The notes beneath the pieces are model-generated. The model worked only from the letters and a program-made list of their open reading frames with translations, searched no databases and was not told the origin of the DNA. Made by a program: the position numbers and the translations under genes. From the NCBI GenBank assembly GCA_965116495.1, contig OZ220696.1, positions 3,840,001-3,904,000 on the forward strand: a DNA stretch of 64,000 nucleotides, in the 5' to 3' direction. Positions 44,204 through 61,526 of this stretch are shown here, in pieces. The stretch's first letter is position 1. Each line of letters begins with the position of its first letter. This DNA comes from Gammaproteobacteria bacterium (GTDB lineage Bacteria > Pseudomonadota > Gammaproteobacteria > Eutrophobiales > Eutrophobiaceae).

Positions 44204-44237
44204 ACCGAACAAACTTATTTACAAGTTTGTAATCATG

Positions 44238-44410: not shown

Positions 44411-44881
44411 ATGTATTTGAAAAGAAGTCTTTTTATAATGTTACTGTTACTGGGCTCCATGCAGGTGTCCGCCCAGCAGATTCACATCATTAACGCGGAA
44501 GCGCGTATATTCAATCCGGACGTGATTTACGTAGAGCCGGGCGATAACGTGAGGTTCGTCAATATGACGTCCCATGACGCCGTATCGATTAATCAAGTGC
44601 CGCTTCCCGACGGCCAGGTGTTCGAGGGAATGCTTCCCGAAGGCGCCGAAGGCTGGAAAAGTAAAATGGGCAACGATTTTACCCTGCAACTAGACATAGA
44701 AGGTGTGTATCCCTTTGTGTGCATTCCCCATATCGGGTTCGGAATGGTGGGTGTCATCGTAGTAGGTGAGCCGGTCAACATCGATACTGCCATGGAGAAT
44801 GCGAGAGCCAACCTTACGGGTGGCTGGCGGCGGCTTATCGGCAAGATCCTCAAAGTGCAGCGGGCTGCGAAGAAAGGTTGA
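44411..44881 (+). CDS. Pseudoazurin-like blue copper protein (cupredoxin)
   Basis: F.P....V.PGD.V.F, His ligand in SHDA and C-x2-H-x4-M (CIPHIGFGM) type-1 copper loop; signal peptide. Confidence 0.88.
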   Translation: MYLKRSLFIMLLLLGSMQVSAQQIHIINAEARIFNPDVIYVEPGDNVRFVNMTSHDAVSINQVPLPDGQVFEGMLPEGAEGWKSKMGNDFTLQLDIEGVYPFVCIPHIGFGMVGVIVVGEPVNIDTAMENARANLTGGWRRLIGKILKVQRAAKKG

Positions 44882-45753
44882 TGAAAATGAAAAAATACTT
44901 GCTGGCGTGCCTGTTGCTGGTATCCGGTGTGGCGTCCGTACCGGCAGACGTCGGGGAAATGACCGCGTTGAAAGTGTGCGCCGACCCGTTTATGCTGCCC
45001 TTTTCCAATCGCAAGGAGCAGGGCTTCGAGAACAGGATTGCGGAATTGTTCGCGGAGAAACTGGGCGTGGAACTACAGTATGAATTTTTCCCCCAGAGAA
45101 TAGGGTTTATCCGCAATACTCTCAAGGCAGAATCCGAGTCAGGCACCGGCTACAAGTGCGACCTGGTGATGAGCGCGCCGGTGAATTTCGAGCGGGCTGC
45201 GGCTACAAACCCTTATTACACCAGTTCCTATGCCCTGGTCATGGCCAGGGGCCGGGGAATGGATGATGTCACCTCTCCGGAAATGCTGGTTGAAATGGTC
45301 AACAATGGATTGGAAATAAAATTTGGCGTGACTGATCGTGGCCAGGACCAGTTCTGGGTGTTCAGGCACGGTCTGATGGGGAGTATAGTGCCGTACCAGG
45401 GACAACCTGGCGACCCCGAGGTGTATCCGGGTAAAACATTGACCGAGGATTTGCTTGCCGGGAGAATTGATGCGGCGATTATCTGGGGGCCTACCATAGG
45501 ATATTTTGCCAAAACCATGGAAGGTGGTGAGAATCTTATCATCCTGCCGTTAAGTGATGATCCTACGTCCGCCTACCTGAAGTTTACGTTCACTGTAGCA
45601 ATGGCGGTAAGGCACGGAGAAAAAGAGTGGAAGGACAAGGTAAATCAACTGATTGCCGAGAACCAGGCGGAAATCAACGCCATCCTGGAAGACTATGGCG
45701 TACCGTTGCTGCCGCTGGAAAAAATAGAAATACGGGAAGATGATGACGACTAA
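44881..45753 (+). CDS. xoxJ: XoxJ/MxaJ-family periplasmic binding protein
   Basis: LKVCADP..LPFSN...QGFEN.IA, CDLVM, IIWGP..GY, MAVR.GE..WK and IL..YGVPL. Confidence 0.9.
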   Translation: MKMKKYLLACLLLVSGVASVPADVGEMTALKVCADPFMLPFSNRKEQGFENRIAELFAEKLGVELQYEFFPQRIGFIRNTLKAESESGTGYKCDLVMSAPVNFERAAATNPYYTSSYALVMARGRGMDDVTSPEMLVEMVNNGLEIKFGVTDRGQDQFWVFRHGLMGSIVPYQGQPGDPEVYPGKTLTEDLLAGRIDAAIIWGPTIGYFAKTMEGGENLIILPLSDDPTSAYLKFTFTVAMAVRHGEKEWKDKVNQLIAENQAEINAILEDYGVPLLPLEKIEIREDDDD

Positions 45754-46522
45754 AATATCGGCCACAGAGATTCATCTGCGGATAATTCTATGCGCCCTGT
45801 GGCTATTTTCATCGGTGGTCGCTGTTGCCGAGGACGCGGATGACGGCGTAGAAGTGAAGGGGGCTACCATTGGCAGAATGGGCGACCCCGTTGCCGTTGA
45901 CCCGGATACCTATGAGTTTGCCGACGCGGAAGCCAAACTCTGGCTGGATAATCACCTGCAGAACATCAACAGCCCGGGGCGGCTTTATTACGATTTCGTC
46001 AAGCGCGGGAGTTACGAGGAAGGTTTCAGCGACTCCGTCTACCTGGATATCGTCGAGGTGAACGAGGACGGCAGCAAGAATGCCGACCTGGAATTTTTCA
46101 CCGCAGATAGACAGCAGGATGCGCGCGGCGACAACCTTGTCGGCGTAACGGGTAACCCGGTCCTGCTTGTCTATATGCAGGGAGACGTCTACGAGATGAA
46201 TCGCCTGACCAACGGCAGTTGGCGCTATTTCCAGAGGCGGATCAAGTCTGCTTTTGCAGAGGAAGCGAAAATAGAAACGGTTTCGTTTGAATATGACGGA
46301 ACGCAACTGACCGGCGAGAAAATTTCCATCACCCCGTATCTCAACGACCCCAGGCGGAGGCAGTTCGCCGAGTTTGCTCCCAAGGTGTATGAATTCATCC
46401 TGTCCGATCAGGTACCGGGGAAACTGTACCAGATCAAGACCGTCATCCCGGACACAGCACCGGACAAGGAACCGTTGATAGAAGAGATCCTGACCCTGCA
46501 GAACGCAGAATTCACGGACTGA
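45740..46522 (+). CDS. Exported hypothetical protein
   Basis: 260-aa ORF overlapping the xoxJ stop, signal-peptide-like N-terminus, acidic; no family recognised. Confidence 0.65.
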   Translation: MMTTKISATEIHLRIILCALWLFSSVVAVAEDADDGVEVKGATIGRMGDPVAVDPDTYEFADAEAKLWLDNHLQNINSPGRLYYDFVKRGSYEEGFSDSVYLDIVEVNEDGSKNADLEFFTADRQQDARGDNLVGVTGNPVLLVYMQGDVYEMNRLTNGSWRYFQRRIKSAFAEEAKIETVSFEYDGTQLTGEKISITPYLNDPRRRQFAEFAPKVYEFILSDQVPGKLYQIKTVIPDTAPDKEPLIEEILTLQNAEFTD

Positions 46523-46559: not shown

Positions 46560-47381
46560 TCACCTGGCTGCATTGAGCAGCACCATGACTTCTCCCTTGC
46601 CTTTGTTCGCCATATCGCCGCTGTACAAACGGACTTCCGGGCCGAAATTTCGGAAAAACCGATAACGGCTGCCCATCCGGGAGAGCTGTTTGAAAAACAG
46701 GCGCAGATATTCCATCTTCAACGTACCGCAGTTCGCCAGGGTGGTGCCGATTTTCTCAGGACGCCTGCCCAGTATGATGGTCCCGCGTTTCATCCCGTAA
46801 CCCGGGAGTTTGCCGGATTTGCCCAGTATCAAAATGGTGCCGGCAACCATCCCCGCGCCGCTGAAGTCACCGGCGTCACCACCAATCATGATCATCCCGC
46901 GCCGCATCTTGTCACCGAGACGATTTCCGGCATTGCCCCATACCGTTATCAGGCCGTCCCGCATTCCCTGCATGCTGGTTCGGGCCCCGGCCCCGATGTA
47001 ATCGCCGGCATCGCCTTCGACATCGATCCTGCCCCAGTACATATCGCAGCCGAGCCAGTCGCCGCAACTGCCGTTGACCCTGATTGTGCCGCCTGTCATC
47101 CCGTGTCCGAGGTAACTGCCGCCGTGCGCCTTGACACTGATATGCCCGCGCGTCATCCGGTCGCCTATCCGGGTAACCAGTTCCGTCGTGCGGCGTAATT
47201 CGATATGCTCAGGGTCTTCCCCGCTAATGGAAAACAGCTCCCCGGCCCTGACCGGCCTGGAACCGTAGGCCAGTTCGATCCCGGCGATATTATCCGCGAC
47301 CGACAGCCTGTCCGGTGTCAGCGCTGATAAATCCAGTGTCCGCTGCGGTTTTTTCTTCAAGGTGAAAATCATGGGATTCAT
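46560..47381 (-). CDS. fhcC: Formyltransferase/hydrolase complex subunit C
   Basis: GXGXG beta-helix repeats (IGDRMTRG, LG.GM.GG, GDKMRRG, GM.AGT) and GD.A..GKGE. Confidence 0.92.
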   Translation of the reverse strand: MNPMIFTLKKKPQRTLDLSALTPDRLSVADNIAGIELAYGSRPVRAGELFSISGEDPEHIELRRTTELVTRIGDRMTRGHISVKAHGGSYLGHGMTGGTIRVNGSCGDWLGCDMYWGRIDVEGDAGDYIGAGARTSMQGMRDGLITVWGNAGNRLGDKMRRGMIMIGGDAGDFSGAGMVAGTILILGKSGKLPGYGMKRGTIILGRRPEKIGTTLANCGTLKMEYLRLFFKQLSRMGSRYRFFRNFGPEVRLYSGDMANKGKGEVMVLLNAAR

Positions 47382-48274
47382 TTCAGAATTTCCCTGAGAT
47401 GGAAATGGTGAGGTCCCAGTTTTCCGCCGTAGTTGCCGGCACTGATCCGGTAGATGCCCTTGTCGGGCCCGTTTTTACAGACCGCCTCGATACCGGCGCG
47501 CATGGCGGCGCGGATCGCCGCTTCATTCAGGCCGTCTATGACGATCTCCAAGACGGAGCCGATTTCTTCCGTCAGCACGCTGTTTACCCGGCTTTTCAGG
47601 GTGGGACAGAAGACCTCGTTTGTCGAGGCCGGTAGAAATGAGTATTTCGAGCCTACCTTGGAACCGGAACCGACTATTCCGCCGGGAAACGTGGTAACAG
47701 CACCATCTACGGCGCGAATCGCCTTGACGGCTTTTTCGCAGGCGCTCAGACCGTGACGGGAGGTTTTTGCCATGACAAGGAAATTGCCGCCGCCGATGGC
47801 AGGAACGACGCCGGTGGTTTCTTCGCACAGAAATTCGCCGTGCATGACCGGGATGCGCCAGTAACGGATACCGTCCAGTATTTTTGATATCTGGTGCCCG
47901 TCGCCAAAATATCGCAGGCTTTTACCCAGGGGTAACATGGTATCGCTGTGGGTCCCGGCAAAACAGGCGCTGGTCGCGGTAGTCATTACGGATTGTCCGA
48001 CGCGCCGGGTGAGCTGGTCGGCCAACTGCGATTTCGACATGGCAAACATGATGATCGCTACACCGGGCCTGCCATCCGGGGTTTCTTCCGGTTTCAGTTC
48101 CCGCTCAATATCCGCCTCACAACCGCAGGCAATCACGGACGAAGCAAATCCGGTCAGGGAATTGGCCGCGATGTATGCATACTTCATGGTCATGGCGGTG
48201 ATGATCAGCCGGGTCGCCTTCATGGGGAAGGCTTCCGCAAACGTATCGTCAATGGTTACGCCGTTGATGTTCAT
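47378..48274 (-). CDS. fhcD: Formylmethanofuran:H4MPT formyltransferase
   Basis: IDDTFAEAF, SVIACGCEA, TPDGRPG, LRYFGDG, GSKVGSKY and ISAGNYGG.LG. Confidence 0.94.
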   Translation of the reverse strand: MNINGVTIDDTFAEAFPMKATRLIITAMTMKYAYIAANSLTGFASSVIACGCEADIERELKPEETPDGRPGVAIIMFAMSKSQLADQLTRRVGQSVMTTATSACFAGTHSDTMLPLGKSLRYFGDGHQISKILDGIRYWRIPVMHGEFLCEETTGVVPAIGGGNFLVMAKTSRHGLSACEKAVKAIRAVDGAVTTFPGGIVGSGSKVGSKYSFLPASTNEVFCPTLKSRVNSVLTEEIGSVLEIVIDGLNEAAIRAAMRAGIEAVCKNGPDKGIYRISAGNYGGKLGPHHFHLREILK

Positions 48275-48292
48275 AATTAAAAGATATAATAA

Positions 48293-48431
48293 ATCCGCAG
48301 ATGACGCAGATTAACGCAGATGTTTTCAGGTATTATTTATGCCAGTCTGCTGTATGCCTGCATTCACGATAACAGCCTGAAAGATATAAAACTCTTAATA
48401 TAATCTGCGTTAATCTGCGTCATCTGCGGAT
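48293..48431. repeat. Inverted nonamer-like repeat element (ACGCAGAT family)
   Basis: ATCCGCAGATGACGCAGATTAACGCAGAT...ATCTGCGTTAATCTGCGTCATCTGCGGAT perfect 29-bp arms; fragment near 31288. Confidence 0.82.
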
Positions 48432-50086
48432 AAATCCTGTTTGCAGTCATGCACCAGCAGCGAATGTTGATTATACCCCTCCAATTCGTCACGGCTGAGT
48501 TTGTAGTTTTCCAGGTTCATGGTCATGTACCTGTCAAAATAGCGTTTCAGGGGTTTTTCTATGCCCCGGTCGTAGTCCGGTTCGACCACGTGGGTGGACG
48601 TGGCCGGTATGGCGCAGACCTTGCCGTTCCGGACGCAGAGTTCGCCGCGTTTGAATACGTACTCCGGGCTGCTGAACATGGTCTCTGCGTTGCCGTCGGG
48701 TTTATAGACGGTGATATCCGCGGTTGCTCCAGTACCCAGGTGGCCGAGGTTGTCCAGTCCCAGGCTCCTGGCCGGCGCGGCGCGGGTGAGAATTGCGATC
48801 TCGTATAATGAATATTCCCGGTCGATTGTGGACAGGATACTTGCGCTGGCGGCATCCTTGTTGATAGTGGCCAGCATGTCGTTGCGGAAGCCCTTGTCCA
48901 TGAGCAGCCTGATCAAATGCGGATATGAAGTGAATGGTGCGCCGTTGGGGTGGTCGGTGGTCAAAAAGACGCGCCAGGGATCGTCAACGAGTAAAAATAT
49001 CTCAAGGCCGATACACCACTGGAGGGCATTGACGAAATTCCTGTCCCGGTAGCGGAACGGCACCACGCCGCAGCCGGCATCGCATTCTATGTCCATGCAG
49101 ACCCATTTATTCGGATGGGCGTGAACATGTCCCCTGTGCTGCGTCATACTGTCGGCAGACGTGGTGATGGTCTGGCCGAACATGATCTGGCCGACGTCAA
49201 TGGATACGTTTCCGTTCCGGTTGACAGCCTCTGCTATCCGGGCCGCTTCGGATGAGAATTTCCTGTCACCCTCCTGCCCGTAACTGTGGAACTGTACATG
49301 AGTCAGGTGCAAGGGCTTGCCCTCGGCTGCAGCTATGGTGTCAAGCGTTGTCCGGTAATTTCCGGGCACCCCCAGGTTGCAGCCATGCACGTGCAGTGGA
49401 TGAGGAATGCCGAGGGCGTCCAGTGCGTCAAGCAGCGCGCACAGGATGTTACGTGGGGTGATCCCGTAGCCGTTGTTTTTTTCATCCAGGTCCAGCTTTC
49501 TCTGGTTGAACTTGAACGCATTGATACCCCCCGGGTTCACTACCTTGATGCCCATTGCCCGTGCTGCGTGGATTGTCCAGGCCACATAATCGTTGATCAC
49601 GGATTGGTCTTTTTTGCCCTGCAGCAGGCGCAGCAGGAAATCGTCGTTACCGAGCAGAACGTAAGCGCCCGTGTCCAGCATGGGGGTGTCCGCCATTTCC
49701 AGGTGCGAGGCGCGTGCATTTACAGGCATCATCGCCGGTTCGAAACAGGTGGTATAACCCATTTCGGCATAACGGTAGCCGGTGACGAAACTGGTAGGGG
49801 CAATGGTGCCGGAGCCCGAATGCGTGAGGTCTCCCGGGGACACCGGGTGACTGTCGTGGTCATCTGCAAGTAGTAACCTGGCGATATTGACCTTGCCCCC
49901 GCCGATGTGGGTATGGATGTCAATACCGCCTGCCATCACGATGCGGCCGCCCAGGTTTATTACCTGGTGAATTTTCTGATCCGGCGCCGGTTCGACCAGC
50001 ATGCCGTCCTGGACGTACAGGTCCAGTATTCTGCCGTCTATGCCGTTAGCCGGGTCGTAGACCTTACCGCCTTCGAGCTTTATCAT
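48410..50086 (-). CDS. fhcA: Formyltransferase/hydrolase complex subunit A (amidohydrolase)
   Basis: D.HTHIGGG, KVVNPGG, HVHG.NLG.PGN, HVQFHSY and TTDHPNG. Confidence 0.94.
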   Translation of the reverse strand: MIKLEGGKVYDPANGIDGRILDLYVQDGMLVEPAPDQKIHQVINLGGRIVMAGGIDIHTHIGGGKVNIARLLLADDHDSHPVSPGDLTHSGSGTIAPTSFVTGYRYAEMGYTTCFEPAMMPVNARASHLEMADTPMLDTGAYVLLGNDDFLLRLLQGKKDQSVINDYVAWTIHAARAMGIKVVNPGGINAFKFNQRKLDLDEKNNGYGITPRNILCALLDALDALGIPHPLHVHGCNLGVPGNYRTTLDTIAAAEGKPLHLTHVQFHSYGQEGDRKFSSEAARIAEAVNRNGNVSIDVGQIMFGQTITTSADSMTQHRGHVHAHPNKWVCMDIECDAGCGVVPFRYRDRNFVNALQWCIGLEIFLLVDDPWRVFLTTDHPNGAPFTSYPHLIRLLMDKGFRNDMLATINKDAASASILSTIDREYSLYEIAILTRAAPARSLGLDNLGHLGTGATADITVYKPDGNAETMFSSPEYVFKRGELCVRNGKVCAIPATSTHVVEPDYDRGIEKPLKRYFDRYMTMNLENYKLSRDELEGYNQHSLLVHDCKQDLSADDAD

Positions 50087-51321
50087 GCCGGATTGCCTTC
50101 CAATTGTGAGATAACCTCCCTGATGATCCGGGCGGCGCTGGGGGATCCGGAGTCTCTCACTTGTTTCAGGGGCATATTGATGATGTTGTCCGTCCTGAAC
50201 AGACTGCCGGCGTGGTCGATGCCGGGAATTCCCACGGGGATATAAACGTCGGCGTCTGCTGCCCCGGTACGGTATGGGGATAAAATTATCGTGGGGACGT
50301 TTAACGCCGGGGGACGGTCGTCTGCTAAAGTCGAGATCCATAGCAGGCTGTCCACGGCAGATATGTCGGCAGCGGCGCCGGACGGACATCCGGAACGAAA
50401 ATTGACGCCGGTCGGGAATCCGGTCTGCCAGGTAGCCACGCCCTGGAAGGATGCAGCGCCGTTACTGCCGCTGAGTGACAATCCGGCGAAGCGCTGCCGG
50501 GTGTTCAGGTCGCGCGCCAGGTCCAGTATCGAATTGATGATCAGGTCCGCATGGTCCTGCGGTAATGCTGCCGGGCACCATACCAGCACGCCATAACGCG
50601 CGTTCCGTACCATCCCTGCAACCTGGTTCAGTTTGCGGTTTTTTGCCGCCGGTATGGCCTGGTAGTCAGACAGTTGTTCATCTGCCAGTCTGGCGCGCAG
50701 CAGCGCCAGGTTGTCGGCTATTTCATCAGCGTGGCCGGACACGACAACGGGAGCGTGGTCATTGAATTCATTCAACTCCGCAGTACCGGGCCGGCCCAGG
50801 TAGGCCAGTTTCCTGTTGTTTGATGCGGCGAACAGGGAGTAGGGGGATTTGATGAAGCGTTCGATGAACCGGGGATAATCCCCGGTAACGTTTTCACCGA
50901 TAAAGATGACGGTATCCGCCCTGTTTTTCACCTCTGCCAGGGTGGTCATAATCCCGCCCCGGGTCTGTAGCGCTTTCAGGTTATGGCCGGCATGGTGTTC
51001 GTGTGCCTGCAGGAGCGCGGCATCGACCTTTTCGGCGAGGCGCAGGGCTGCGCGTATGCCGTCCACGTCGGTGCCGAGGCCCGCTATCAGCGGTTTGCCG
51101 GACTGTCGAAGTAGCGCGGCTGCGGCTGTTACCGCCTGGTCGATGGTCGCCGGAATGCCTTTAACGCTTGCCTGCGCAGCAGGGGGGGGAGCGGCAAAGC
51201 CCTGCACGGCAAGCCGGCAGTCGTTGGCGGATACGTCAAGTTGTTGCTGATTGTTACGGACCGTCAGGTCATCGCACAAAAGACTGCAAAACGGGCAGGT
51301 TACATTCGCTGTTGACGCCAT
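50083..51321 (-). CDS. fhcB: Formyltransferase/hydrolase complex subunit B (no Mo/W Cys ligand)
   Basis: CPFCSLLCDD, TTLAEVKNRAD and WQTGFP; the FwdB VCHG ligand motif is absent. Confidence 0.88.
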   Translation of the reverse strand: MASTANVTCPFCSLLCDDLTVRNNQQQLDVSANDCRLAVQGFAAPPPAAQASVKGIPATIDQAVTAAAALLRQSGKPLIAGLGTDVDGIRAALRLAEKVDAALLQAHEHHAGHNLKALQTRGGIMTTLAEVKNRADTVIFIGENVTGDYPRFIERFIKSPYSLFAASNNRKLAYLGRPGTAELNEFNDHAPVVVSGHADEIADNLALLRARLADEQLSDYQAIPAAKNRKLNQVAGMVRNARYGVLVWCPAALPQDHADLIINSILDLARDLNTRQRFAGLSLSGSNGAASFQGVATWQTGFPTGVNFRSGCPSGAAADISAVDSLLWISTLADDRPPALNVPTIILSPYRTGAADADVYIPVGIPGIDHAGSLFRTDNIINMPLKQVRDSGSPSAARIIREVISQLEGNPA

Positions 51322-51336
51322 TCGAAGTTAATGACT

Positions 51337-52701
51337 TCAGTCCAGCAGGGCCAGCATTTCATTGACATAGGTGTATTTCTCCCGGGGTTTGCCTGCAGGT
51401 TCACCCCGTGTAATCTCGGCAGCATCGATTATTTTCCAGTCTGCGAAGCTGATATGGCGGATATTACTCCGGTCGAGGATTTCGTAACACCCCGCCGCGC
51501 CGCTCTTGTTTGCACCGGTATCCAGGCTGTCAAGGTCATCCATTAACATGCTTATTGTTTCCACGCTGTCTGCCTTGTTGGTACCGATGATGCCGGTAGG
51601 GCCGCGTTTTATCCACCCGGCCGCATACAAGCCGGGTTCCACCGCGCCGTCCTTTGTGACCCTGCCTTTGTCATTCGAAAACACCCCTCGTGATTCGTCA
51701 AACGGTACTCCCGGCATCGGAATGCCGTGGTAACCTATACTGCGAAATACGATTCCCGCGTCAATACTGAACGTCTCACCACTGCCTCTTGCCGACTGCC
51801 GGAATGCCTCCCCTGACAGGGTGTTTTTTTCAATTAGCAGTCGTTCGACCCTGCCGGCGCCGGATATTTCCCTGGGACTCTTGAGGAAAGTAAAGATACA
51901 GCGTCGCTCACCGGCCGCTTCCCGGCCGGCAAAACCGCAGAACAGGTCGTAGATTTTTTTATTGCCGGTATTTGCCAGTTCGGCTTCGCTTTCCGGGTTC
52001 AGCGCCAGTTCACCGGCGTCGATCACCGGGTCGCAGGCAGCCAGTACGCCGAACTCCTTCAATTCCTTGGAGGTGAACTTGGCCTGTGCCGGTCCGCGCC
52101 GGCCGATGACATAGATATTTGTTACTTTGCTCTCGGCCAGGGCATCCAGGGCGTGTCCGGCGATATCCGTGTGCTTCAGTTCATCAACTGTTTTGGCCAG
52201 TATCCGGCTCACGTCGGCGGCGACGTTGCCCTGGCCGATGATGACGGCGGTCTCGTGGGACAGGTCAAACTCCCTGTCGCGGTAATCGGGATGGCCGTTG
52301 TACCAGCCGACAAATTCCGTTGCCGTATAGCTGCCGGGAAGGTCTTCCCCGGGAATGCCGAGACGGCGGTCGGTCTCAGCCCCGCAGGTCAGGATCACCG
52401 CGTGGTGTGTTGCCCGCAGTTCATCTACGCTGATATCGGTGCCTACAACGACGTTCCCGATGTAATTGAACTGTTCCGCTTCGGCGATCCTGGCATAGAC
52501 CTTGATAGCCTGTTTCAGTTTCGGGTGATCCGGCGCAACGCCGCTTCTCACCAGGCCATACGGTACCGGCAAGCGTTCGAACATGTTGATCCTGACTTCG
52601 AGGTTCGCTTTGAAGAGCGCGTCAACAGCGTAGAATCCGCTGGGACCGCTACCGACTACGGCAACGATCAAGGGGTTATCCTGGGTTCCTAATCGACTCA
52701 T
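51337..52701 (-). CDS. Ferredoxin--NADP+ reductase (FprA / adrenodoxin reductase type)
   Basis: GSGPSG, PYGLVRSGVAPDH, FVGWYNGHP, IGQGNVA.D, GRRGP and GWIKRGPTG.IG.N. Confidence 0.9.
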   Translation of the reverse strand: MSRLGTQDNPLIVAVVGSGPSGFYAVDALFKANLEVRINMFERLPVPYGLVRSGVAPDHPKLKQAIKVYARIAEAEQFNYIGNVVVGTDISVDELRATHHAVILTCGAETDRRLGIPGEDLPGSYTATEFVGWYNGHPDYRDREFDLSHETAVIIGQGNVAADVSRILAKTVDELKHTDIAGHALDALAESKVTNIYVIGRRGPAQAKFTSKELKEFGVLAACDPVIDAGELALNPESEAELANTGNKKIYDLFCGFAGREAAGERRCIFTFLKSPREISGAGRVERLLIEKNTLSGEAFRQSARGSGETFSIDAGIVFRSIGYHGIPMPGVPFDESRGVFSNDKGRVTKDGAVEPGLYAAGWIKRGPTGIIGTNKADSVETISMLMDDLDSLDTGANKSGAAGCYEILDRSNIRHISFADWKIIDAAEITRGEPAGKPREKYTYVNEMLALLD

Positions 52702-52880
52702 GATTTACACAATAATATTCAGCCTGGATGTTCACATCCACTGACGTAATATCCGGGTTGGAAGAGAAACGTATCCCGAACACCCGACGCCGCGCCGAAC
52801 GGGTTTGTCCGGGGATGAACTGGGGAACCTGTTAAGCCAGGGGTTCCCTGAATTTGCAGAATACCTGCCAGCCGGAGTAC

Positions 52881-53197
52881 TAGCCCGGATTTCTCACCAG
52901 GTCGCTTGTTGCTATCTGAAACATATTTGCTATCAATAATTTATGGTAATAGTTTTACTATTCTGTCATTACAGACTGCGCTTGATGCGCCCTCGCTTGT
53001 CTTTTGTCCGCCAGCGGGCACGTGCTTCCTCAACCATAGCTACGGCTATGCTTTCGGTCGCAGGCGCCCGCTGGCGGGACAAATCTGCCAGGAGCAGATT
53101 TGGACGTCCGCAGGACGCCCGCAGGGTGTGCGCCACGGAAGGCGCACATCTAAAATCCGGCGCGATCATCGCATCACCTGGTGAGAAATCCGGGCTA
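52881..53197. mobile_element. MITE copy 4 (full length, nested GGA cassette at 53078-53150)
   Basis: TA-GCCCGGATTTCTCACCAGG ... CCTGGTGAGAAATCCGGGC-TA, perfect TIRs. Confidence 0.9.
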
Positions 53198-53500
53198 GAA
53201 ACCCAGGGCGGCTTTCCTTTCGTCCGCGCCGGGTAACGGATCCATGGTATCGGTGATGACCGGCAGCTCCTTGGATTTTTCCGCGTTGATTTCAATCCAC
53301 TCGTACTTGTCCTCGGGCAGGTCATCTTCCTCGTAGATTGCCTCGACCGGACATTCCGGCAGGCACGCACTGCAATCGATACAGACCTCCGGGTCGATAT
53401 ATAACATCTGATCGTCGTAGTGGAAGCATTCTACCGGGCATACCGCGACGCAATCGGTATAGCGACAGTCTTTACAGTTATCAGTTACGATAGTTGTCAT
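53195..53500 (-). CDS. Dicluster ferredoxin (FdxA-like 7Fe type)
   Basis: C..C.YTDCV.VCPV.CF and IDP..CIDC..C.PECP motifs. Confidence 0.92.
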   Translation of the reverse strand: MTTIVTDNCKDCRYTDCVAVCPVECFHYDDQMLYIDPEVCIDCSACLPECPVEAIYEEDDLPEDKYEWIEINAEKSKELPVITDTMDPLPGADERKAALGF

Positions 53501-53554
53501 GATATTCTCCTAAATAAGCCCATCTGCGATCAGTCTACCCCGGCAGCCGTGGTT

Positions 53555-54364
53555 TTATCCAGCATATAATAATATTTCACCCCGGTTCAATTCAACACTG
53601 TCGCCGCAGTAACGTTTGAATAAACCCTGAAGGTATTCTTCACCTATCGCAAAGACATCCATCAGGTAGATGAGGTAAAGCATCAGGTAACCCGGCCGGT
53701 AAGTGCAAGAATAGCTGAAGGTGGGCAGCAAGTGTGCGCTCTTCAGACTGGCGATGCTGCCCCGTTTCATGCCCGCCCCGGTGCGGATACCCAGTTCTCC
53801 CAGTACAATTATGCTGCCGGAGAGCATATTGACCCCGGTGAAGTCCCCGCTGTTGCCGGCAACGGCGATTAACCCGTTGCGCATTGCATTGCCGGTCTCG
53901 TTACGCACATTGCCGTGAATGATGATTTCCCCGCCTGTCATGCCCATGGTTGCACCCCGGTAGGCGCTCCCTACCATGTGGCCTGCATTGCCGCGAATTT
54001 CAATTCTGCCGCCGGACATCTCCGGCCCAACCCAGTCGGCGGCATTGCCGTTAACCCGTATTTCACCCCCGCTCATGGCGGCCCCAAGGTGTTCGCCGAC
54101 GTCACCTTCCACCTGGATGGTCCCCCGTGACATCCCGGCGCCGATGAGTTTTACCCGCCCCAGGTGGTCTCCCTGCACGTTGATGACCCCGTCGGATTGG
54201 CCTGTCACGCTGAAGAAGTCACCGATATAACGGGGTTCACTGCCATGCATGACGGTCAGTTTTTCCACGCTCGCCGGGGTCTGGCCGGTGAGGCGGGCAG
54301 GGGTAATGTTGTCCGCCTCAAGGGGAACGTCCGGTGTCGCGATTTGTTTCAGCGAAAAAGGCAT
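53555..54364 (-). CDS. fwdC: Formylmethanofuran dehydrogenase subunit C
   Basis: VPLEA..I.P, beta-helix repeats, YRG...GM.GG and G.RTGAGMKRG. Confidence 0.88.
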   Translation of the reverse strand: MPFSLKQIATPDVPLEADNITPARLTGQTPASVEKLTVMHGSEPRYIGDFFSVTGQSDGVINVQGDHLGRVKLIGAGMSRGTIQVEGDVGEHLGAAMSGGEIRVNGNAADWVGPEMSGGRIEIRGNAGHMVGSAYRGATMGMTGGEIIIHGNVRNETGNAMRNGLIAVAGNSGDFTGVNMLSGSIIVLGELGIRTGAGMKRGSIASLKSAHLLPTFSYSCTYRPGYLMLYLIYLMDVFAIGEEYLQGLFKRYCGDSVELNRGEILLYAG

Positions 54365-54378
54365 CTCAGGAACCTACC

Positions 54379-54403
54379 GGGGACAGATTTCAAACCTGTC
54401 CCC
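54379..54403. repeat. REP-like palindrome, GGGGAC family
   Basis: GGGGACAGATTTCAAACCTGTCCCC. Confidence 0.7.
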
Positions 54404-54440
54404 TGTCTGCAAAAATAGTTCATCCGGCGATACACAGCGG

Positions 54441-55331
54441 TCAGGCCACCAGTTCATGCAGGTTAATCTTGTACTGGCCGAGGTTGCCGCCGTAGTTTCC
54501 GGCAGTGATCTGCCTGATCCCCGGTTTTGCCGCAGCCCGGATGCCCGCAGCCATGGCCTCCCTCACCGCGCGCTCTGTCAGGCCGTCAATCACGATTTCC
54601 AGGGCGCAGTTGACATCTGCCGGGAGGCTGCTGTCGGTTACCGCTTTCAGCGTTGGACAGTAGGCATCATTGGTGGACGCGGGCAGGGTTTTGTAACGTG
54701 AACCCACTTTGCTGCCGCTGCGCACGACACCATCGGGAAAGGGCAGGATAATATCCTTTACCGCAGCCATGGCCCGGGTGGCCGCGCCGGCTGCAGCCAG
54801 GGCTTTTTTCTCATCGGTCCCCAGTATGATGATATTCCCTCCGCCTACGGATTTCTGTACGGCAAACGATTCTTCCACGGTAAATTCACCATCCATGACC
54901 GGGATACGCCAGAACCGCCGCTGCGCCAGTTTCTTGCTGCCCTGGAAGCCATCGCCGAAATAACGCAGTTGCGAACCGACCTGGACAACCTCTTCACCAT
55001 CCAGGCCGTTGAAACAAGCCGTAGTCGGGCAGGTCATCACACACTGGCCGATGCGTTCAAGCAGGCGCTTGCCTACCGACGCCTTGTCCATGGCGAATAA
55101 CAGGATGCTGACGCCCGGCCGGCGGTCCGGGGTCTGATCGGGTGGCAGGATGCTCTCTATACCGGCCTCACATTTACAGCCGATCACCGAGGTGGCAAAC
55201 CCGGTCATCGATTGTGCCGCGGCCAGGCTCCAGCGTTTGGTCGCCGCGGTAACAATCACCCGCGCTCCCCACATGCTGAAGGCTTCGGCAAAGGTTCCGA
55301 CAATTTCCGTTGACCTGAGCTTCATCATCAC
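54441..55331 (-). CDS. ftr: Formylmethanofuran:H4MPT formyltransferase (second paralog)
   Basis: TFAEAF, FATSVIGCKCEAGIE, RIGQCVMTCPTTA and ITAGNYGG.LG. Confidence 0.92.
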   Translation of the reverse strand: MMMKLRSTEIVGTFAEAFSMWGARVIVTAATKRWSLAAAQSMTGFATSVIGCKCEAGIESILPPDQTPDRRPGVSILLFAMDKASVGKRLLERIGQCVMTCPTTACFNGLDGEEVVQVGSQLRYFGDGFQGSKKLAQRRFWRIPVMDGEFTVEESFAVQKSVGGGNIIILGTDEKKALAAAGAATRAMAAVKDIILPFPDGVVRSGSKVGSRYKTLPASTNDAYCPTLKAVTDSSLPADVNCALEIVIDGLTERAVREAMAAGIRAAAKPGIRQITAGNYGGNLGQYKINLHELVA

Positions 55332-56965
55332 ACCGTTGCGATCACTTCATGGTCATGCAGGTAACTGTCATTGACCGCATAATTCGCAAATTCGATGGAA
55401 TAATAGCTCTCAAAAAACGGCCTGACCTCGGCGACGATGGATTCGTCGTATGCGGGTTCCGTATGCAGGAATTTCCCGTAGAAATCCCGGCAGAACTCGT
55501 GGTTGTCGATAATGACGTTACCTGATTTAATCACGTAACGGGGCGCGTTGAACATGGCCTCCTTGTCGTCCATCTCATCGTAGATGGTGATATCCGCGTC
55601 CGCGCCCGCGCCCAGGTGCCCCTTGTTTTTCAGGTTCAGTGCCCGGGCCGGGCCGGCGCGGGTGATGATTGCTATCTCATTGAGTGTATATTCGCGGTCC
55701 AGTTCATTCAGTATCGTACCGTTGATGGCCTTCTGGTTGACGCGCTTGATTTCCTCCTTGCGGAATTCCTTGTCCATCAGCAGGCGGATCAGCTTGGGGT
55801 AGCTCATAAAGGAGCCGCCATTCGGATGGTCGGTGGACAGGACGATACGCCAGGGGTCCCTGGACAGCAGGAACAGTTCCAGGCCGATAGCCCATTGCAG
55901 GGCATGGACATAGACATGCTCCTGGTAGCTGAACGGAACGATACCGCAACCGCTCTCGCATTCCGTATCGGCGTTGACCCATTTCGCTTTTTTAAAACCC
56001 CTGAGCATGTAGGCCAGCGGTGCGTCCGCGGTCATGATCGTGGATTTGCCGAACATGACCTGGCCGACGTCGCAGGTGATATTGGGGTGGTCGTTAACGT
56101 ACTCGGCGATCTGCCGGGACGCGGATTTGGGGTTCTTGCCGAGCTCTCCCGCGTAGCTGTGGAATTGGATGTGGGCCAGGTGCGCGCGTCTGTCGCCCGC
56201 CGTTTTCATGGTCTCCAGGGTGGTCTCGAAGTTGCCGCTATGGCCCAGGTTGTTGCAGTGAATATGGGGCGGATGCGGTAGACCCAGTTCATTGACCGTT
56301 TCAATAAAAGAATCGATTACCTGCCGGGGTGAGACCTCTATAAACTCACTTTTTTCATCAATATCCTTGACGTTTGAATTCTTTTTGCCCTTCCAGGGTT
56401 CATCTCCGCCCGGGTTCACCAGCTTGGTCGTGTAGGCCTTGGTCGCGTTAATCCACCAGGCTACCGCATGGCGAAACTCTTCCTTGCGGCCGGCCTTGAT
56501 CAACTGCTGTAAGAAAATATTATTACCCAGGAGTACGTAAAATCCTTTATCAATAACCGGCGTATCGTGAAACTCTTCAATGGTATGCCGGGCGCCGATA
56601 GGTGTGACGGCCGCTTCCATGGCGGTGGTGTAGCCCAGGGTGGCATAACGGTACCCTGTTGCAAAGGTGGAAGGAACGGTACCGCCGGCGCCGGACCGGG
56701 TGTGTTCCGTGGCAGGGTGGGGATCGCGGCGATGGTCTTCAGGCTGCAGTTTCCTGGCCAGGTTTACCTTGGGGCCGGCTATATGGCAGTGGATATCCAC
56801 GCCGCCGGGCATCACTACCATGCCGCTGACGTCTATCCTTCGGGGCGTGGAGGAAGGCGTCTCGACCATGCGCCCCTGTTCCAGGTAAAGGTCTTTTATT
56901 GCCCCGTCGATGCCGTTGGCCGGGTCATGAACCTTGCCCCCTGCAAGTTGAATGCATTCCGTCAT
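55328..56965 (-). CDS. fwdA: Formylmethanofuran dehydrogenase subunit A
   Basis: GVDIHCHIAG.KVN, KLVNPGG, HIHCNNLG and STDHPNG. Confidence 0.9.
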   Translation of the reverse strand: MTECIQLAGGKVHDPANGIDGAIKDLYLEQGRMVETPSSTPRRIDVSGMVVMPGGVDIHCHIAGPKVNLARKLQPEDHRRDPHPATEHTRSGAGGTVPSTFATGYRYATLGYTTAMEAAVTPIGARHTIEEFHDTPVIDKGFYVLLGNNIFLQQLIKAGRKEEFRHAVAWWINATKAYTTKLVNPGGDEPWKGKKNSNVKDIDEKSEFIEVSPRQVIDSFIETVNELGLPHPPHIHCNNLGHSGNFETTLETMKTAGDRRAHLAHIQFHSYAGELGKNPKSASRQIAEYVNDHPNITCDVGQVMFGKSTIMTADAPLAYMLRGFKKAKWVNADTECESGCGIVPFSYQEHVYVHALQWAIGLELFLLSRDPWRIVLSTDHPNGGSFMSYPKLIRLLMDKEFRKEEIKRVNQKAINGTILNELDREYTLNEIAIITRAGPARALNLKNKGHLGAGADADITIYDEMDDKEAMFNAPRYVIKSGNVIIDNHEFCRDFYGKFLHTEPAYDESIVAEVRPFFESYYSIEFANYAVNDSYLHDHEVIATV

Positions 56966-56971
56966 ATTGGC

Positions 56972-58336
56972 TTACTGCATGGGTGCTGCGGCTTTGCTCT
57001 CTCCGCTTGCTCCTCTGGCCTGGCCTTTCGCCAGAACCAGTTCGCGCACACGCTTTTTGACTGCGGTAAGAATTTCCTCATCGTTCGGAAAAGGTGAATC
57101 AAAGGCCTTGCGCAAGGTGATAGGCACGTCGTCCATGCGGTATACGGTACCGGCCGTATTGATGCCGTAGGTAGAGGTCCGAAAAGCAACGTGCGCCAGC
57201 TTGCTGGTGAGAGTCGCCTTGGTATCCAGGCATATCACCGGAATTCTGGACAGGTGGTCAATAGCCGCCTGGGGAAAATTGGACGCAGGGTCGGTGGCAA
57301 CAATCAAAGCGGCGTCGACATCTTGCTTGGCCAGTAAATCGACGGTGGTGAACTCGCCCGGGTTGAAACGGGGGAACCCCCGGCTGAAATTAACACCGAA
57401 GGGATAGCCGGTCTGCCAGGACATGACGTTATCTGCGCCGGTTACGTTGCCATGGCCGCGCACAGGCTTGGCAACGAAATGGGTATATTCATTCAGGTCC
57501 GTAGCCAGGGCCAGCAGCGCGCCTGAATTAAAGTGCCGGCCGCGGGTCATGGTCAGGCCCATGCCGAAAAACAACACGCCGTAGCGGCAGTTTTTCATCC
57601 TGTCGACCAGTTCCTGCAGGGTTTCCAGGCTGATTCCGGTAATCTCCTCGATTTCCGGGTCGATTTTGCGGTTTTTCACCAATGCCCTCAGGGCCCATAA
57701 CAACTCGAAGTCTTTTCCGGGTTTTACCTGGATGAACTGGTGAGCTGCCGGCGCGCTGGGTGTCCTGCGTACGTCGACCATGACCACGTGACGGTCCTTT
57801 TTGCCGCGCGGCGTAAACATCCCTTTGGCGGTGACGGCATAACGGCCGAAATGGCGCGGGTGGGACTCCGCAGGATTGCCGCCCCAGTAAATGACCAGGT
57901 CGGCGCGGTTTTTTACCTCGCCCAGGGTCATGGTGCTTTCACCGACGCCCTGCAAGGCAATGCCGGAAGGCCCGTGGCAGACTGAAGTTGTGGTGTCGAT
58001 GTTGCCCTTGATGGTATCGGTAATGGCCACGGCTTGTTTCTGCGCCTCACAGGTCGTATCGCTGAGACCGTAAGTGATGGGGAACCTGGCGTTAACCAGG
58101 GTCCTGGCGGCTTCTTCCACTGCCTCGTCAATGGAGACGGGCCGATTATCTATCATGGCGGCAGGAGCGTCTTCCTCGATATAGTGCTCCGCAAACCAGG
58201 CTTTGCCGAGTATGCAGGCGTTCTTTGACTTGGTAATCCGTTTTTCGTCCAGGTCCACCGTCAGGATCATGTCATCACAGACACAACCACAGAAGGTACA
58301 GGTGGCATTTTCTACAACTTTGACGTTTTCACTCAT
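56972..58336 (-). CDS. fwdB: Formylmethanofuran dehydrogenase subunit B (Mo/W-bisPGD type)
   Basis: CTFCGCVCDD...C 4Fe-4S motif, SVCHGPS metal-ligand Cys, WGGNP.E.HPRH and RGH.NV.G. Confidence 0.9.
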   Translation of the reverse strand: MSENVKVVENATCTFCGCVCDDMILTVDLDEKRITKSKNACILGKAWFAEHYIEEDAPAAMIDNRPVSIDEAVEEAARTLVNARFPITYGLSDTTCEAQKQAVAITDTIKGNIDTTTSVCHGPSGIALQGVGESTMTLGEVKNRADLVIYWGGNPAESHPRHFGRYAVTAKGMFTPRGKKDRHVVMVDVRRTPSAPAAHQFIQVKPGKDFELLWALRALVKNRKIDPEIEEITGISLETLQELVDRMKNCRYGVLFFGMGLTMTRGRHFNSGALLALATDLNEYTHFVAKPVRGHGNVTGADNVMSWQTGYPFGVNFSRGFPRFNPGEFTTVDLLAKQDVDAALIVATDPASNFPQAAIDHLSRIPVICLDTKATLTSKLAHVAFRTSTYGINTAGTVYRMDDVPITLRKAFDSPFPNDEEILTAVKKRVRELVLAKGQARGASGESKAAAPMQ

Positions 58337-58368
58337 GATTTCTCCCCACGGAATCGCGGCAAGCCATT

Positions 58369-58713
58369 TTAACTGATTTTTTCCACCTGGACAGAAATAT
58401 GTTTTGACAGGGGCATTCCGCTGCCGGCTGTGTCGCTTTCCATCAGGCGGCTCGACACAGGCCCGTAAGCTATGAACATCATGCCTTCCGGCAGGTCGGT
58501 GGCTTTTTTGGAAACGCAGGTAACAACGACCTCCCCGATATGATTTTTCAAGCACAGCTTATCACCGTTGTCGAAACCGAGCCGGGCCATATCATCCGCA
58601 TTTATTTCGACGGTGGATGTGACGTCCCGGTACTCATCGCCGAGCTTCCCCTTGTTAAGGGAAGTCCCCTGTTTACTGGATCGTCCCGGGATTAACAACA
58701 TGGTTACAGGCAT
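58369..58713 (-). CDS. fwdD: Formylmethanofuran dehydrogenase subunit D (molybdopterin dinucleotide-binding)
   Basis: GRS.KQG....GK, D...LG...GD, G..FI.YGP and T.G.GMP..K. Confidence 0.88.
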   Translation of the reverse strand: MPVTMLLIPGRSSKQGTSLNKGKLGDEYRDVTSTVEINADDMARLGFDNGDKLCLKNHIGEVVVTCVSKKATDLPEGMMFIAYGPVSSRLMESDTAGSGMPLSKHISVQVEKIS

Positions 58714-59096: not shown

Positions 59097-59189
59097 AGTC
59101 AGAGTTTTCTTAGAATTCATGGATGTCCCAAATTAGAATACTTGGAATTTATGGATATCCCGAATTAGAATATCCCCGTGGTTTTGAAG

Positions 59190-60206
59190 ATGAAGACACG
59201 AGAAGACATCGCTGCTGCTGAAACTGTGAGGGTTGCCGCGGCAGCCCGCCTGCACCTGGGCTTCCTGGATTTGAACGGTGGCTTGCACAGGCGCTACGGC
59301 AGTATCGGGGTCGGGATAACGGGTTTTTCCACGGTGGTGAGTGTCTGCCATAGCGACCGGGTTGATATCGAGGGAGCGGATGATGAATATATCGCCCGGA
59401 TAACGGAAACCGTCCTGGATTATTTCCGCCTGAATTCCGGGGTCAGGGTTAAAGTTGAAGAATATATTCCCCGGCACCAGGGTCTGGGTTCCGGCACACA
59501 GATGGCCCTGGCATTGGGCGCTGCCATCACCGGCCTGTACGGTATCGACACCACGGTTGACGAACTTGCGCTTGCAACAGGAAGAGGAGCGCGTTCCGGG
59601 GTAGGGCTGGGGGTGTTCAAGGAGGGTGGTTTCATTCTTGACAGCGGCAAGACCGGAGGACACGGGTTGCCGACGCTGATATTCCGCCACGACCTTCCTG
59701 AAGAATGGCAGTTCGTCCTGGTGATGGATGAACGGGCCAAAGGGATAAACGGGATGGAAGAAATCGAAGCGTTCAATTCATTGCCGGATATGTCCCCCGA
59801 GGCCAGCGCGGAGATTTGCCAACAGGTATTGATGCGGATGCTGCCGAGTATTATAGAAAAAGATTGCGGGCAATTCGGTGCATCCGTCAGCAGGATACAG
59901 GCGCGCATCGGCGACTATTTCAGCGCTGCCCAGGGAGGTATGTTTGCCAGTGACAATGTAAGACGGACGCTTGAATTCCTGTTGGAAAACAAGGCAACAG
60001 GTATCGGCCAGACATCCTGGGGGCCGACCGGGTTTGCTGTATTCCCGGATAAAAAATCGGCAATGCAGGCCGTAGACAATTTAATCGGGAGGGATATGCA
60101 GGTAAGCCTGCGGTTTGCCGGGGCGGAAAACAACAAGGCCCAAGTCAACAGACTGGTGACGGCGGAGGCAGGACTGAAATCAGACCCCGCAACCCTGTTA
60201 CGGTAA
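59190..60206 (+). CDS. mptG: Beta-ribofuranosylaminobenzene 5'-phosphate synthase
   Basis: ARLHLGFLDL.G, P.HQGLGSGTQ GHMP motif, RG.RSG.G and GQ.SWGPTGF. Confidence 0.92.
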   Translation: MKTREDIAAAETVRVAAAARLHLGFLDLNGGLHRRYGSIGVGITGFSTVVSVCHSDRVDIEGADDEYIARITETVLDYFRLNSGVRVKVEEYIPRHQGLGSGTQMALALGAAITGLYGIDTTVDELALATGRGARSGVGLGVFKEGGFILDSGKTGGHGLPTLIFRHDLPEEWQFVLVMDERAKGINGMEEIEAFNSLPDMSPEASAEICQQVLMRMLPSIIEKDCGQFGASVSRIQARIGDYFSAAQGGMFASDNVRRTLEFLLENKATGIGQTSWGPTGFAVFPDKKSAMQAVDNLIGRDMQVSLRFAGAENNKAQVNRLVTAEAGLKSDPATLLR

Positions 60207-60270
60207 ACTGCTATAAACATCAGTAATTCCCTCATCCGGCATAATCAGCGGGGGCCCCTGTATAAACATT

Positions 60271-60299
60271 TGGACATTTGCCGGGCAGTGTTTTACAAT
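60271..60299 (+). promoter_or_regulatory. Candidate sigma70 promoter upstream of mch
   Basis: TGGACA-17 nt-TACAAT. Confidence 0.45.
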
Positions 60300-60502
60300 T
60301 CGCTCCCTTGCCGTAGGTATAACGTGATTAGCGTGGTGCAGATGGGGCCTTACGTTTTGGTGTGCCGACAGGTGTACAGCCCGTATATCAACATGCGCAT
60401 TTCACGCCGCGCTGCCGACGGGTTTTTATCCTGCTCGGAAAATTTCGTGAATTATTGGTCCGGGAAGACCCGGATGTGAATACACACATTACTATTAATG
60501 AC

Positions 60503-61498
60503 ATGAGAAATTTTGGCGCAGAAGAAACAAACCTGAGCATCAACACCTTGATCGCTCCGAAGGTAAATCAATTGATCAACACTTCGGGTGGGCTCGGATT
60601 GAATACCAGCCGCGCGGAAAACGGAAGTTTATTGATAGACGCGGGCATCGCCGGCTGTGGCAGTATTGAGGCCGGCAGACAAATTGCTGAAATCTGTCTT
60701 GGAGGACTGGCTACTGCGAGATTGCGGGCTTCGCGAGACTATGAAAACTGGCCGTGGCACGTGGACGTTCATACCAGCCATCCGGTGATTGCCTGTCTGG
60801 CCAGCCAATACGCCGGTTGGAGTCTTTCCAACGGCAAAGGCAAGGGGACATTCAACGCGTTGGGGTCCGGTCCGGCCAGGGCCCTGGGCAGCAAAGAACC
60901 GTTGTTTGATGAAATCGGTTATCGTGATAAAGCGGACCAAACCTGTATCATACTGGAAGTTGATACTATCCCGCCGGTTGAAATTGCCGATAAAATTGCC
61001 CGGCGGTGTCAGGTTTCGCCGGAAAACCTCACGCTTATCATGACGCCTACCTCAAGTTTGGCCGGCTCAGTGCAGGTTGTCGCCCGGGTATTTGAGGCCG
61101 CATTGCATAAGGCCCACACTATGCGTTTTCCCCTGAAAAGAATTGTAGACGGCATGGGCACCGTCCCCTTGTGTCCCCCCGCGCCGGATTTTCTGACGGC
61201 CATGAGCCGTACCAATGATGCGATTTTGTTCGGTGGCCAGGTCCATTTGTTTGTCAATGCGGGTAATGAAGATGCAGAGGCGCTGGCACGCGCGTTGCCA
61301 AGCAATACGTCAGAAGACTACGGCAGGCCGTTTGCCGAGGTATTCAGAAGCGCCGGTTTTGATTTCTACAAGCTTGATCCCATGTTGTTCAGCCCGGCTA
61401 TGGTGATCGTGAGTTCTCTCAGTACCGGGCGTTCGTTTAAGGCAGGAGAGATCAACCTTAGCGCCTTGAACAAATCATTCACCAGCATATTCAGTTAA
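60503..61498 (+). CDS. mch: Methenyl-H4MPT cyclohydrolase
   Basis: ID.G....GS.EAG, EICLGGL, ACLASQYAGW, GSGPARAL, RTNDAILFGG and DPMLFSPA; start uncertain. Confidence 0.94.
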   Translation: MRNFGAEETNLSINTLIAPKVNQLINTSGGLGLNTSRAENGSLLIDAGIAGCGSIEAGRQIAEICLGGLATARLRASRDYENWPWHVDVHTSHPVIACLASQYAGWSLSNGKGKGTFNALGSGPARALGSKEPLFDEIGYRDKADQTCIILEVDTIPPVEIADKIARRCQVSPENLTLIMTPTSSLAGSVQVVARVFEAALHKAHTMRFPLKRIVDGMGTVPLCPPAPDFLTAMSRTNDAILFGGQVHLFVNAGNEDAEALARALPSNTSEDYGRPFAEVFRSAGFDFYKLDPMLFSPAMVIVSSLSTGRSFKAGEINLSALNKSFTSIFS

Positions 61499-61526
61499 AC
61501 GGTAACTGTGTAACACCCGCAACATG

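Follow-up and report, generated by a model that had tools for sequence, protein, structure and literature searches.

A 64,000-nt stretch of a closed gammaproteobacterial genome (99.5% complete; family Eutrophobiaceae; contig OZ220696.1, positions 3,840,001 to 3,904,000), referred to here as the window, carries two neighboring sets of genes at 46560-58713: one resembling the archaeal formyl-methanofuran dehydrogenase Fwd and one resembling the bacterial formyltransferase/hydrolase complex Fhc, with a ferredoxin gene (fdx) and a ferredoxin:NADP+ reductase gene (fnr) lying between them. A check of open reading frames (ORFs) together with family scans found 11 ORFs in this interval, all intact and every one on the minus strand, which bears out the co-oriented order fwdD-fwdB-fwdA-ftr-fwdC-fdx-fnr-fhcB-fhcA-fhcD-fhcC that had been proposed in an earlier note on this DNA (Table 1). 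The starts of fwdB and fhcA were corrected to 58336 and 50086, respectively. Intergenic gaps ranged from −4 to 76 nt, with the exception of the fdx-fnr gap (493 nt) and the fhcA-fhcD gap (135 nt), the latter of which contains a hairpin. Scans for promoters and terminators gave counts at or near chance level (9 vs 9.1 and 17 vs 12.7, respectively).

Table 1. Features at and around the fwd-fhc locus, in window positions.
Feature	Position	Strand	Description
fwdD	58369..58713	-	114 aa, predicted Mo/W-bis-PGD (bis-pyranopterin guanine dinucleotide) capping subunit; PF01568 above cut-off
fwdB	56972..58336	-	454 aa, predicted Mo/W and 4Fe-4S dehydrogenase subunit, Cys ligand; TIGR03129, 513 bits
fwdA	55328..56965	-	545 aa, binuclear amidohydrolase; TIGR03121
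ftr	54441..55331	-	296 aa, formyltransferase of the Fwd cassette; TIGR03119
fwdC	53555..54364	-	269 aa, FhcC-type C-terminal helices, predicted Ftr dock
fdx	53195..53500	-	101 aa, Azotobacter FdI-type 7Fe ferredoxin
repeat element	52880..53198	.	319 nt, 23-nt perfect terminal inverted repeats, inserted between fdx and fnr
fnr	51337..52701	-	454 aa, FprA/adrenodoxin-reductase-type NADPH:ferredoxin reductase
fhcB	50083..51321	-	412 aa, without Mo/W ligand, N-terminal 4-Cys motif present
fhcA	48410..50086	-	558 aa, formyl-methylofuran (formyl-MYFR) hydrolase
fhcD	47378..48274	-	298 aa, formyltransferase; family scan
fhcC	46560..47381	-	273 aa; family scan
mptG, mch, orf7 (CitG-like), fae	59178..63094	+	divergent tetrahydromethanopterin (H4MPT) genes; family scans
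pyrroloquinoline quinone (PQQ) alcohol dehydrogenase, pseudoazurin-like protein, MoxJ-like binding protein, one further ORF	42164..46522	+	

FwdB of the first set retains the cluster cysteines C13/16/20/41, the SVCHGPS motif (C120, H121) and R293/H295, so that the claim of a first B subunit with a 4Fe-4S motif, the SVCHGPS cysteine and a FwdD partner agreed with both the residue check and the PF01568 match. Of 40 locus rows, 37 had all eight checked FwdB positions unaltered; the other three are distant loci. The FwdB model (predicted local distance difference test score 93.9) aligned with 8rja_B, its best structural match, and 5t5i at a template modeling (TM) score of 0.90 and a root-mean-square deviation of 1.7-1.8 Å, compared with 0.68 and 3.5 Å for FhcB (6s6y_B). 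The nearest solved chains of FwdD were archaeal FwdD, and the binuclear metal ligands and carboxylated Lys position of FwdA aligned with 5t5i_A, with 412-474 bits to archaeal FwdA vs 357 to FhcA (6s6y_A). Over 21 loci, the median identity to the window was 91.5% for FwdB and 65.7% for FhcB. According to the report on Fhc (PMC6926001), Fhc lost Cys118, His119, Arg288, the N-terminal 4Fe-4S domain and FwdD; each of these features (Cys, His, Arg, 4Fe-4S motif and FwdD) is present in the first set, which thereby falls outside a class defined by a B subunit without dehydrogenase site and by having no D subunit. No FwdG or FwdF ORF lies in the cassette, as had been stated for the window, and a motif scan of the closed genome found no FwdF/G-type polyferredoxin, only four other two-motif proteins. 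The genome encodes MoaA, MobA, MobB, MoeA, FdhD and, with a score below its cut-off, a TupA-like protein; either W or Mo is therefore a possible metal. Comparative evidence supports a first set that is redox-competent by sequence and fold, and we predict that it works like Fwd without being a canonical ABCDFG enzyme. Among distant representatives, FwdD-FwdB fusions were seen in P0001, P0002, P0006, P0008 and P0070, the last also with an inserted 2x4Fe-4S domain.

The first set had been called archaeal-type, which held for B, D and A but not for FwdC and Ftr, both of which are Fhc-like by alignments or scores. The FwdC alignment reached its end only with Methylorubrum extorquens FhcC (6s6y_C), whereas four of five alignments with archaeal chains ended at residues 206-229 and the fifth faded by 257. 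In the FwdC model, which has a helix at 225-235, the best match by TM score and deviation was 6s6y_C (0.91 and 2.0 Å), vs 0.89 and 2.9 Å for 5t5i_C, although 13 of the 44 alignment rows behind the model were FhcC, a possible bias, and the Foldseek E-value ranked 5t5i first. The C-terminal helix-loop-helix of FhcC has been linked to Ftr binding (PMC6926001), and the same element in the first-set C subunit, seen in sequence and model, is a predicted Ftr dock. Ftr itself was slightly nearer to FhcD (317 bits to 6s6y_D vs 270-299 to archaeal Ftr). In a quick tree of A subunits from 49 loci, the cassette proteins grouped in a single clade of 43 rows with support 99, a long way from FhcA; this tree and a quick FprA tree of 29 rows hold bacterial rows only, and affinity to archaeal or Fhc chains was judged by scores against solved chains. 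By these alignments and models, the first set is a hybrid, with B, D and A nearest archaeal Fwd and with an apparently Fhc-like FwdC and Ftr.

The second set is an Fhc: its FhcB reads HHAGH and SGSNG where FwdB has catalytic residues, in line with the prior observation that the SVCHGPS cysteine is missing there; the catalytic Cys, His and Arg are absent, the A subunit is nearest FhcA (439 bits to 6s6y_A vs 368-408 to archaeal FwdA), and D and C subunits are present. The N-terminal 4-Cys motif is kept in this FhcB and in 39 of 48 FhcB rows, which departs from the M. extorquens type, whose B subunit is without the N-terminal 4Fe-4S domain; the motif is possibly a structural Fe-S relic, and its loss was seen mostly in Methylococcales. 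In six genomes of the family Fwd is present but no FhcA was found, and nine carry Fhc alone; either complex can therefore be the sole one. Weak 'FwdB' matches downstream of fhcC in relatives were considered as a third B subunit and rejected, as they are formate dehydrogenase alpha subunits. In the Gemmatimonadales loci L037 and L040, a second B-A-ftr-C set comes after fnr-fwdDBA-ftr-C and groups with neither Fwd nor proteobacterial Fhc, a placement that is unsure given its long branch.

The product of fdx has the pattern CxxCxxxxCxxxC plus CxxCxxCxxxC and matched 7Fe ferredoxins of the AvFdI/FdxA type over its full length, scoring 120.8 bits, under the FdxA cut-off of 135; it is a paralogue distinct from the other FdxA of the genome (51%). 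The fnr product showed full-length homology to FprA 1lqt (378 bits) and adrenodoxin reductase (340 bits) and carries GQGNVA and GRRG motifs, which we take to be tied to NADP preference. In 67 related loci, the partner was fdx plus fnr in 29, fnr alone in 3, a CysJ-like frame in 15 and fdx at a contig end in 1, while the remaining 19 showed none; many of these 19 are cut short, three are distant, and five are from Methylococcales with a long FwdD frame elsewhere in the genome. Since 29 of the 67 loci have the same pair in the cassette, the arrangement is not due to chance, and the conservation of fdx/fnr beside fwd is supported by this survey. Full FwdB was found in 78 of 101 genomes of the family, and 74 of those 78 have an FprA orthologue; G031 is too fragmented to be judged. 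In an even sample of the class, Fwd occurred in 19 of 401 gammaproteobacterial genomes from 10 families (15 genomes and 9 families without four unpublished genomes). When 12 loci from eight other gammaproteobacterial families were examined (12 of 18), fdx-fnr was in the cassette at 10, the two exceptions being one at a contig end and one interrupted by an integrase-like ORF. FprA also lies inside the cassette in Rhodospirillales and Gemmatimonadota loci. The idea that the cassette invariably comes with fdx/fnr was rejected, as loci and genomes without the pair were found. The pair had been described as a bridge to Fhc, which did not hold: some loci have fdx/fnr on the upstream side of fwdD, and the pair accompanies Fwd also where fhc is not adjacent, so it is part of the Fwd cassette. 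No cultured carrier was named among the 120 FwdB matches listed or the ten fusion clusters (below) examined, and the two plasmid matches were distant (25-28%).

In Methylococcales, FwdB was present in 25 of 201 genomes, all of them among the 27 with FwdD, and FprA occurred in one of the 201, within the fwd operon of that genome. In 21 of the 25 FwdB-bearing genomes (one of which, G136, is unpublished), FwdD heads a frame of 727-770 aa, two of these long frames being cut by contig ends. All six long frames tested showed FwdD, flavodoxin, FAD-binding and NAD(P)-binding domains by Pfam, an arrangement in which FwdD is joined to a complete CysJ-type diflavin reductase (L056:7516-9720 (P0151), L045:533-2764, L063:7712-9904 and others). 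The tail scored above the CysJ cut-off and carries the SR..K.YVQ motif, presumably for 2'-phosphate binding. A database search with the N-terminal 190 residues returned 84 clusters, 83 of them fusions, which were annotated 'sulfite reductase flavoprotein' wherever named. The fusion genomes formed one clade (support 100, quick A tree). A separate cysJ was present in three of four fusion genomes checked, and in two of these, confirmed by Pfam, cysI follows it. The fusion is thus additional to this gene; its role as the sulfite reductase of the cell was rejected on the same ground, G101 showing the fusion only. In the other four of the 25 Methylococcales genomes, a stand-alone FwdD is preceded by FdxA and a 1216-1219 aa Nfn-like protein that matched the NfnI large and small subunits weakly (E about 1e-16) and that, by homology, may be NADP-linked. 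Two genomes of the window's family, G060 and G094, have no fnr and carry an Nfn-like gene, 44% identical to that of Methylococcales, immediately upstream of fwdD; by coordinates, the same gene is beside fwdD in G001 (partial FwdB). The Nfn-like protein therefore adjoins fwdD in seven genomes (four Methylococcales, G060, G094 and G001). Such NfnL-NfnS-like single chains of 1170-1220 aa lie at L140:10658-14314, L151:13371-16886 and L150:11471-15040, with PntAB adjacent in L140. Overall, three modules, fdx/FprA, Nfn-like and CysJ-type, unrelated or distantly related and all predicted to be NADP-linked, share one place.

We consider it probable that the Fwd-Ftr assembly oxidizes formyl-H4MPT to CO2 without releasing formate and passes the electrons through Fdx and FprA to NADP+, and that Fhc releases formate. 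By analogy with Fhc, Ftr docked on the FhcC-like tail of FwdC would move the formyl group to methylofuran; by analogy with archaeal Fwd, FwdA would then hydrolyze formyl-methylofuran and the formate would pass internally to the Mo/W site of FwdBD, where it would be oxidized. The electrons may leave through the 4Fe-4S cluster of FwdB to the ferredoxin, as a substitute for FwdG/F, and FNR would reduce NADP+, a step suggested by gene context, partner replacement and fusion. NADP+ is the likely acceptor because relatives have, in place of fdx/fnr, further reductases predicted to be NADP-linked, including one fused to an Fwd subunit. The NADP+ couple lies at −0.32 V. With formyl-MFR/CO2 at an E0' of −0.53 V (PMC11656701), oxidation by NADP+ would come to about −40 kJ/mol, as calculated from the two potentials. 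The branch point suggested in the earlier note is supported as to oxidation to CO2 and NADP+ by residues, fold, the conserved fdx/fnr and partner replacement, but not as to a Fdx/FNR route that is obligatory or exclusive. With somewhat less assurance, though still on the favorable side, we propose a widespread bacterial class of formyl-methylofuran:NADP+ oxidoreductases, in which Ftr and Fwd form an all-in-one assembly that would convert formyl-H4MPT to CO2 and NADPH without free formate, whose output module was swapped at least twice and which would represent a living intermediate that had acquired Ftr docking before loss of the Mo/W site.

On the Fhc side, formate would feed FtfL, Fch and MtdA and so the serine cycle, a NADPH-consuming route for which the genes are present: FtfL, Fch, an MtdA-like gene beside fchA, and a sgaA-mcl-mtkAB-hpr-ppc-like cluster in which sgaA, mcl and hpr were under their cut-offs. 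RuBisCO was not found in the genome. All 24 Fwd-bearing genomes tested for Mch have it, and none of 5 genomes lacking Fwd/Fhc does. No MtdB-like gene lies between mptG and mch (window 59178-61498) and none was found in the genome, so MtdA may serve both carriers here; a relative's putative MtdB, labeled from its position, matched only the MtdA-like gene (31%; G000 C1:1158033-1158935).

Several observations weigh against this interpretation. A NAD-type formate dehydrogenase is already encoded in the genome, so CO2 can be reached without Fwd. The usual direction of FprA and CysJ is from NADPH outward. Of 32 distant representative B sequences, just 4 have all eight residues, so the wider B family is often degenerate. 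L034 and L038 show no partner, L037, L040 and L044 have fnr without adjacent fdx, and G029, a closed genome with Fwd, has no FprA orthologue, Nfn-like protein or fused reductase; an unannotated 1658-aa ORF is at the fdx-fnr position in this genome (L088:5494-10470), and no electron partner was found. The pair is also kept in 15 of 20 FwdB-less genomes of the family, adjoining nrdAB, formate dehydrogenase or fhc, so it has clients besides Fwd.

The last point is the basis of the alternative in which Fwd is oxidative but its reduced ferredoxin enters a general pool drained mainly by Rnf or others, with FNR a housekeeping enzyme merely co-located. In genus g13, which lacks Fwd and Fhc, fdx-fnr follows class Ia ribonucleotide reductase genes (L080-L082, L086, L090, L091; the neighbor was confirmed by family scan in L080). 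rnfBCDG-like genes are present in the window's genome, and rnfB is upstream of the cassette in G060. We nevertheless regard this alternative as unlikely, because it leaves unexplained the fusion of FwdD to a diflavin reductase, the location of the sole Methylococcales FprA and the retention of FprA with Fwd: among family genomes with the general Nfn-like paralogue, all 18 that carry Fwd have fnr and none of the 5 that lack Fwd does (G001 is left out of this comparison), a pattern rather than a statistic, since the five co-loss genomes come from three genera only and are not independent. Furthermore, the FprAs of Fwd-less genomes nest within the Fwd-linked clade in the quick FprA tree. The general paralogue (52%) was seen in 24 family genomes and was complementary to FprA among those without Fwd: none of the 15 that keep fnr have the Nfn-like protein (E 1e-100), and all five without fnr have it, retaining only a 53-57% FdxA paralogue. 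Our reading is that fdx-fnr also serves as a housekeeping link between ferredoxin and NADP+ and disappears only where Fwd is absent and a substitute is present; the pair is likely also a general ferredoxin:NADP+ hub.

Flavodoxin/Fpr or methionine synthase reductase reactivate or protect other enzymes. By extension, the NADPH-fed partners might only reactivate or protect an oxygen-sensitive Mo/W or Fe-S center, with catalytic electrons leaving elsewhere. All three partner types are able to run NADPH outward and fdx-fnr adjoins ribonucleotide reductase in g13, but the motif scan found no other electron acceptor subunit in cassette or genome, and oxidation of formyl-MFR by NADP+ is strongly downhill; this possibility has a small chance in our estimate. 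The reverse direction, also raised in the earlier note, in which Rnf or Nfn bifurcation would provide low-potential ferredoxin for CO2 reduction and the resulting formyl-H4MPT or formate would enter the serine cycle, is disfavored on thermodynamics and has, we judge, a slender chance. It requires a donor below about −0.51 V (PMC11656701), for which NADPH via FprA/CysJ is insufficient. Rnf could in principle supply low-potential ferredoxin, Nfn-like proteins do lie beside fwdD in the seven genomes named, and the serine cycle and FtfL are at hand, yet the Nfn-like protein is absent from the window's genome and the cluster has as neighbors fae, mch and a PQQ alcohol dehydrogenase, through which carbon is fed downhill. 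Least probable of all is the view that the first set has no redox activity, being either a relic or an additional Fhc isoenzyme that releases formate. The frameshifted or interrupted cassettes of G085 and G622 and the nine Fhc-only genomes might suggest it, but the ligands are invariant, FwdB co-occurs with FwdD in 25 of 25 cases, FwdB is better conserved than FhcB and six genomes have Fwd with no FhcA found.

The oxidative Fwd favored here can be placed against known systems. Relative to archaeal FwdABCD(FG) of M. wolfeii (5T5I), the first set has B, D and A subunits of the same kind, with the Zn ligands, the 4Fe-4S motif and the Cys/His/Arg site retained; it differs in that no FwdF/G was found, Ftr is in the operon, the FwdC tail is FhcC-type, the partners are a 7Fe ferredoxin and FprA, and serine-cycle genes are present in the host. 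FwdABCDGI of Ca. Ethanoperedens thermophilum (8RJA) is an oxidative archaeal Fwd in which an F420 module replaces FwdF (PMC11493965), a likeness in that a flavin reductase module stands in for the polyferredoxin; the acceptor there is F420 via FwdG/FwdI, whereas in the window it is predicted to be NADP+ via separate or fused bacterial modules. The second set is, like FhcABCD of M. extorquens (6S6Y; PMC6926001), an Fhc, and the first set has in common with that complex the B-A-Ftr-C order, the C-terminal helices of the C subunit and an FhcD-like Ftr. Unlike 6S6Y, the first set retains its dehydrogenase site together with FwdD, and the second-set FhcB keeps the 4-Cys motif.

FwdD-containing sets were, as the earlier note said, already known in some bacterial genomes. 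The Hakuba actinobacterial single-amplified genome S47 carries fwdDBA-ftr-fwdC, the order of the first set, without fwdFG and is reported to be without methanopterin synthesis genes (PMC7325909), and a MopB survey counts 149 bacterial FwdB (PMC10100899); the available text of neither describes a tandem Fhc, an electron partner or NADP coupling. A 2016 review by Chistoserdova (PMC5020050) lists fwdD, in the part available, in Archaea, Synergistetes, Firmicutes and NC10 and not in Proteobacteria, which is contradicted by the gammaproteobacterial genomes studied here, and Fhc has been described as the only known bacterial methylofuran-using enzyme (PMC6926001). The literature searches listed no paper on an NADP-linked bacterial Fwd or a FwdD-CysJ fusion. 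Bacterial fwdDBA-ftr-fwdC is already in print, and the cassette is a conserved Fwd variant for which we know of no characterization.

The genes flanking the cluster include a PQQ alcohol dehydrogenase that we read as XoxF-like, next to which the pseudoazurin-like copper protein is encoded; a second PQQ dehydrogenase-like gene lies at window 25404-27236, with several more paralogues in the genome. The fdx-fnr gap, 493 nt here, has a median of 73 nt in 48 loci. The 319-nt element inserted in it resembles a miniature inverted-repeat transposable element, with internal hairpins; it gave 62 blastn matches in the genome, which has five copies of at least 250 nt, and a partial copy is at window 58890-59008.

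If the proposed oxidation is correct, methylotrophs of about 10 gammaproteobacterial families and some Methylococcales would have a formate-free final oxidation step that yields NADPH, and one-carbon (C1) units would be split between two paralogous complexes. The FwdD-CysJ fusion would make available for study a small Fwd that has its own NADP(H) port, its recognition would correct the sulfite reductase flavoprotein mis-annotation in databases, and the first set would supply an intermediate on the path from Fwd to Fhc. Metabolic reconstructions of many uncultured C1 oxidizers would change accordingly.

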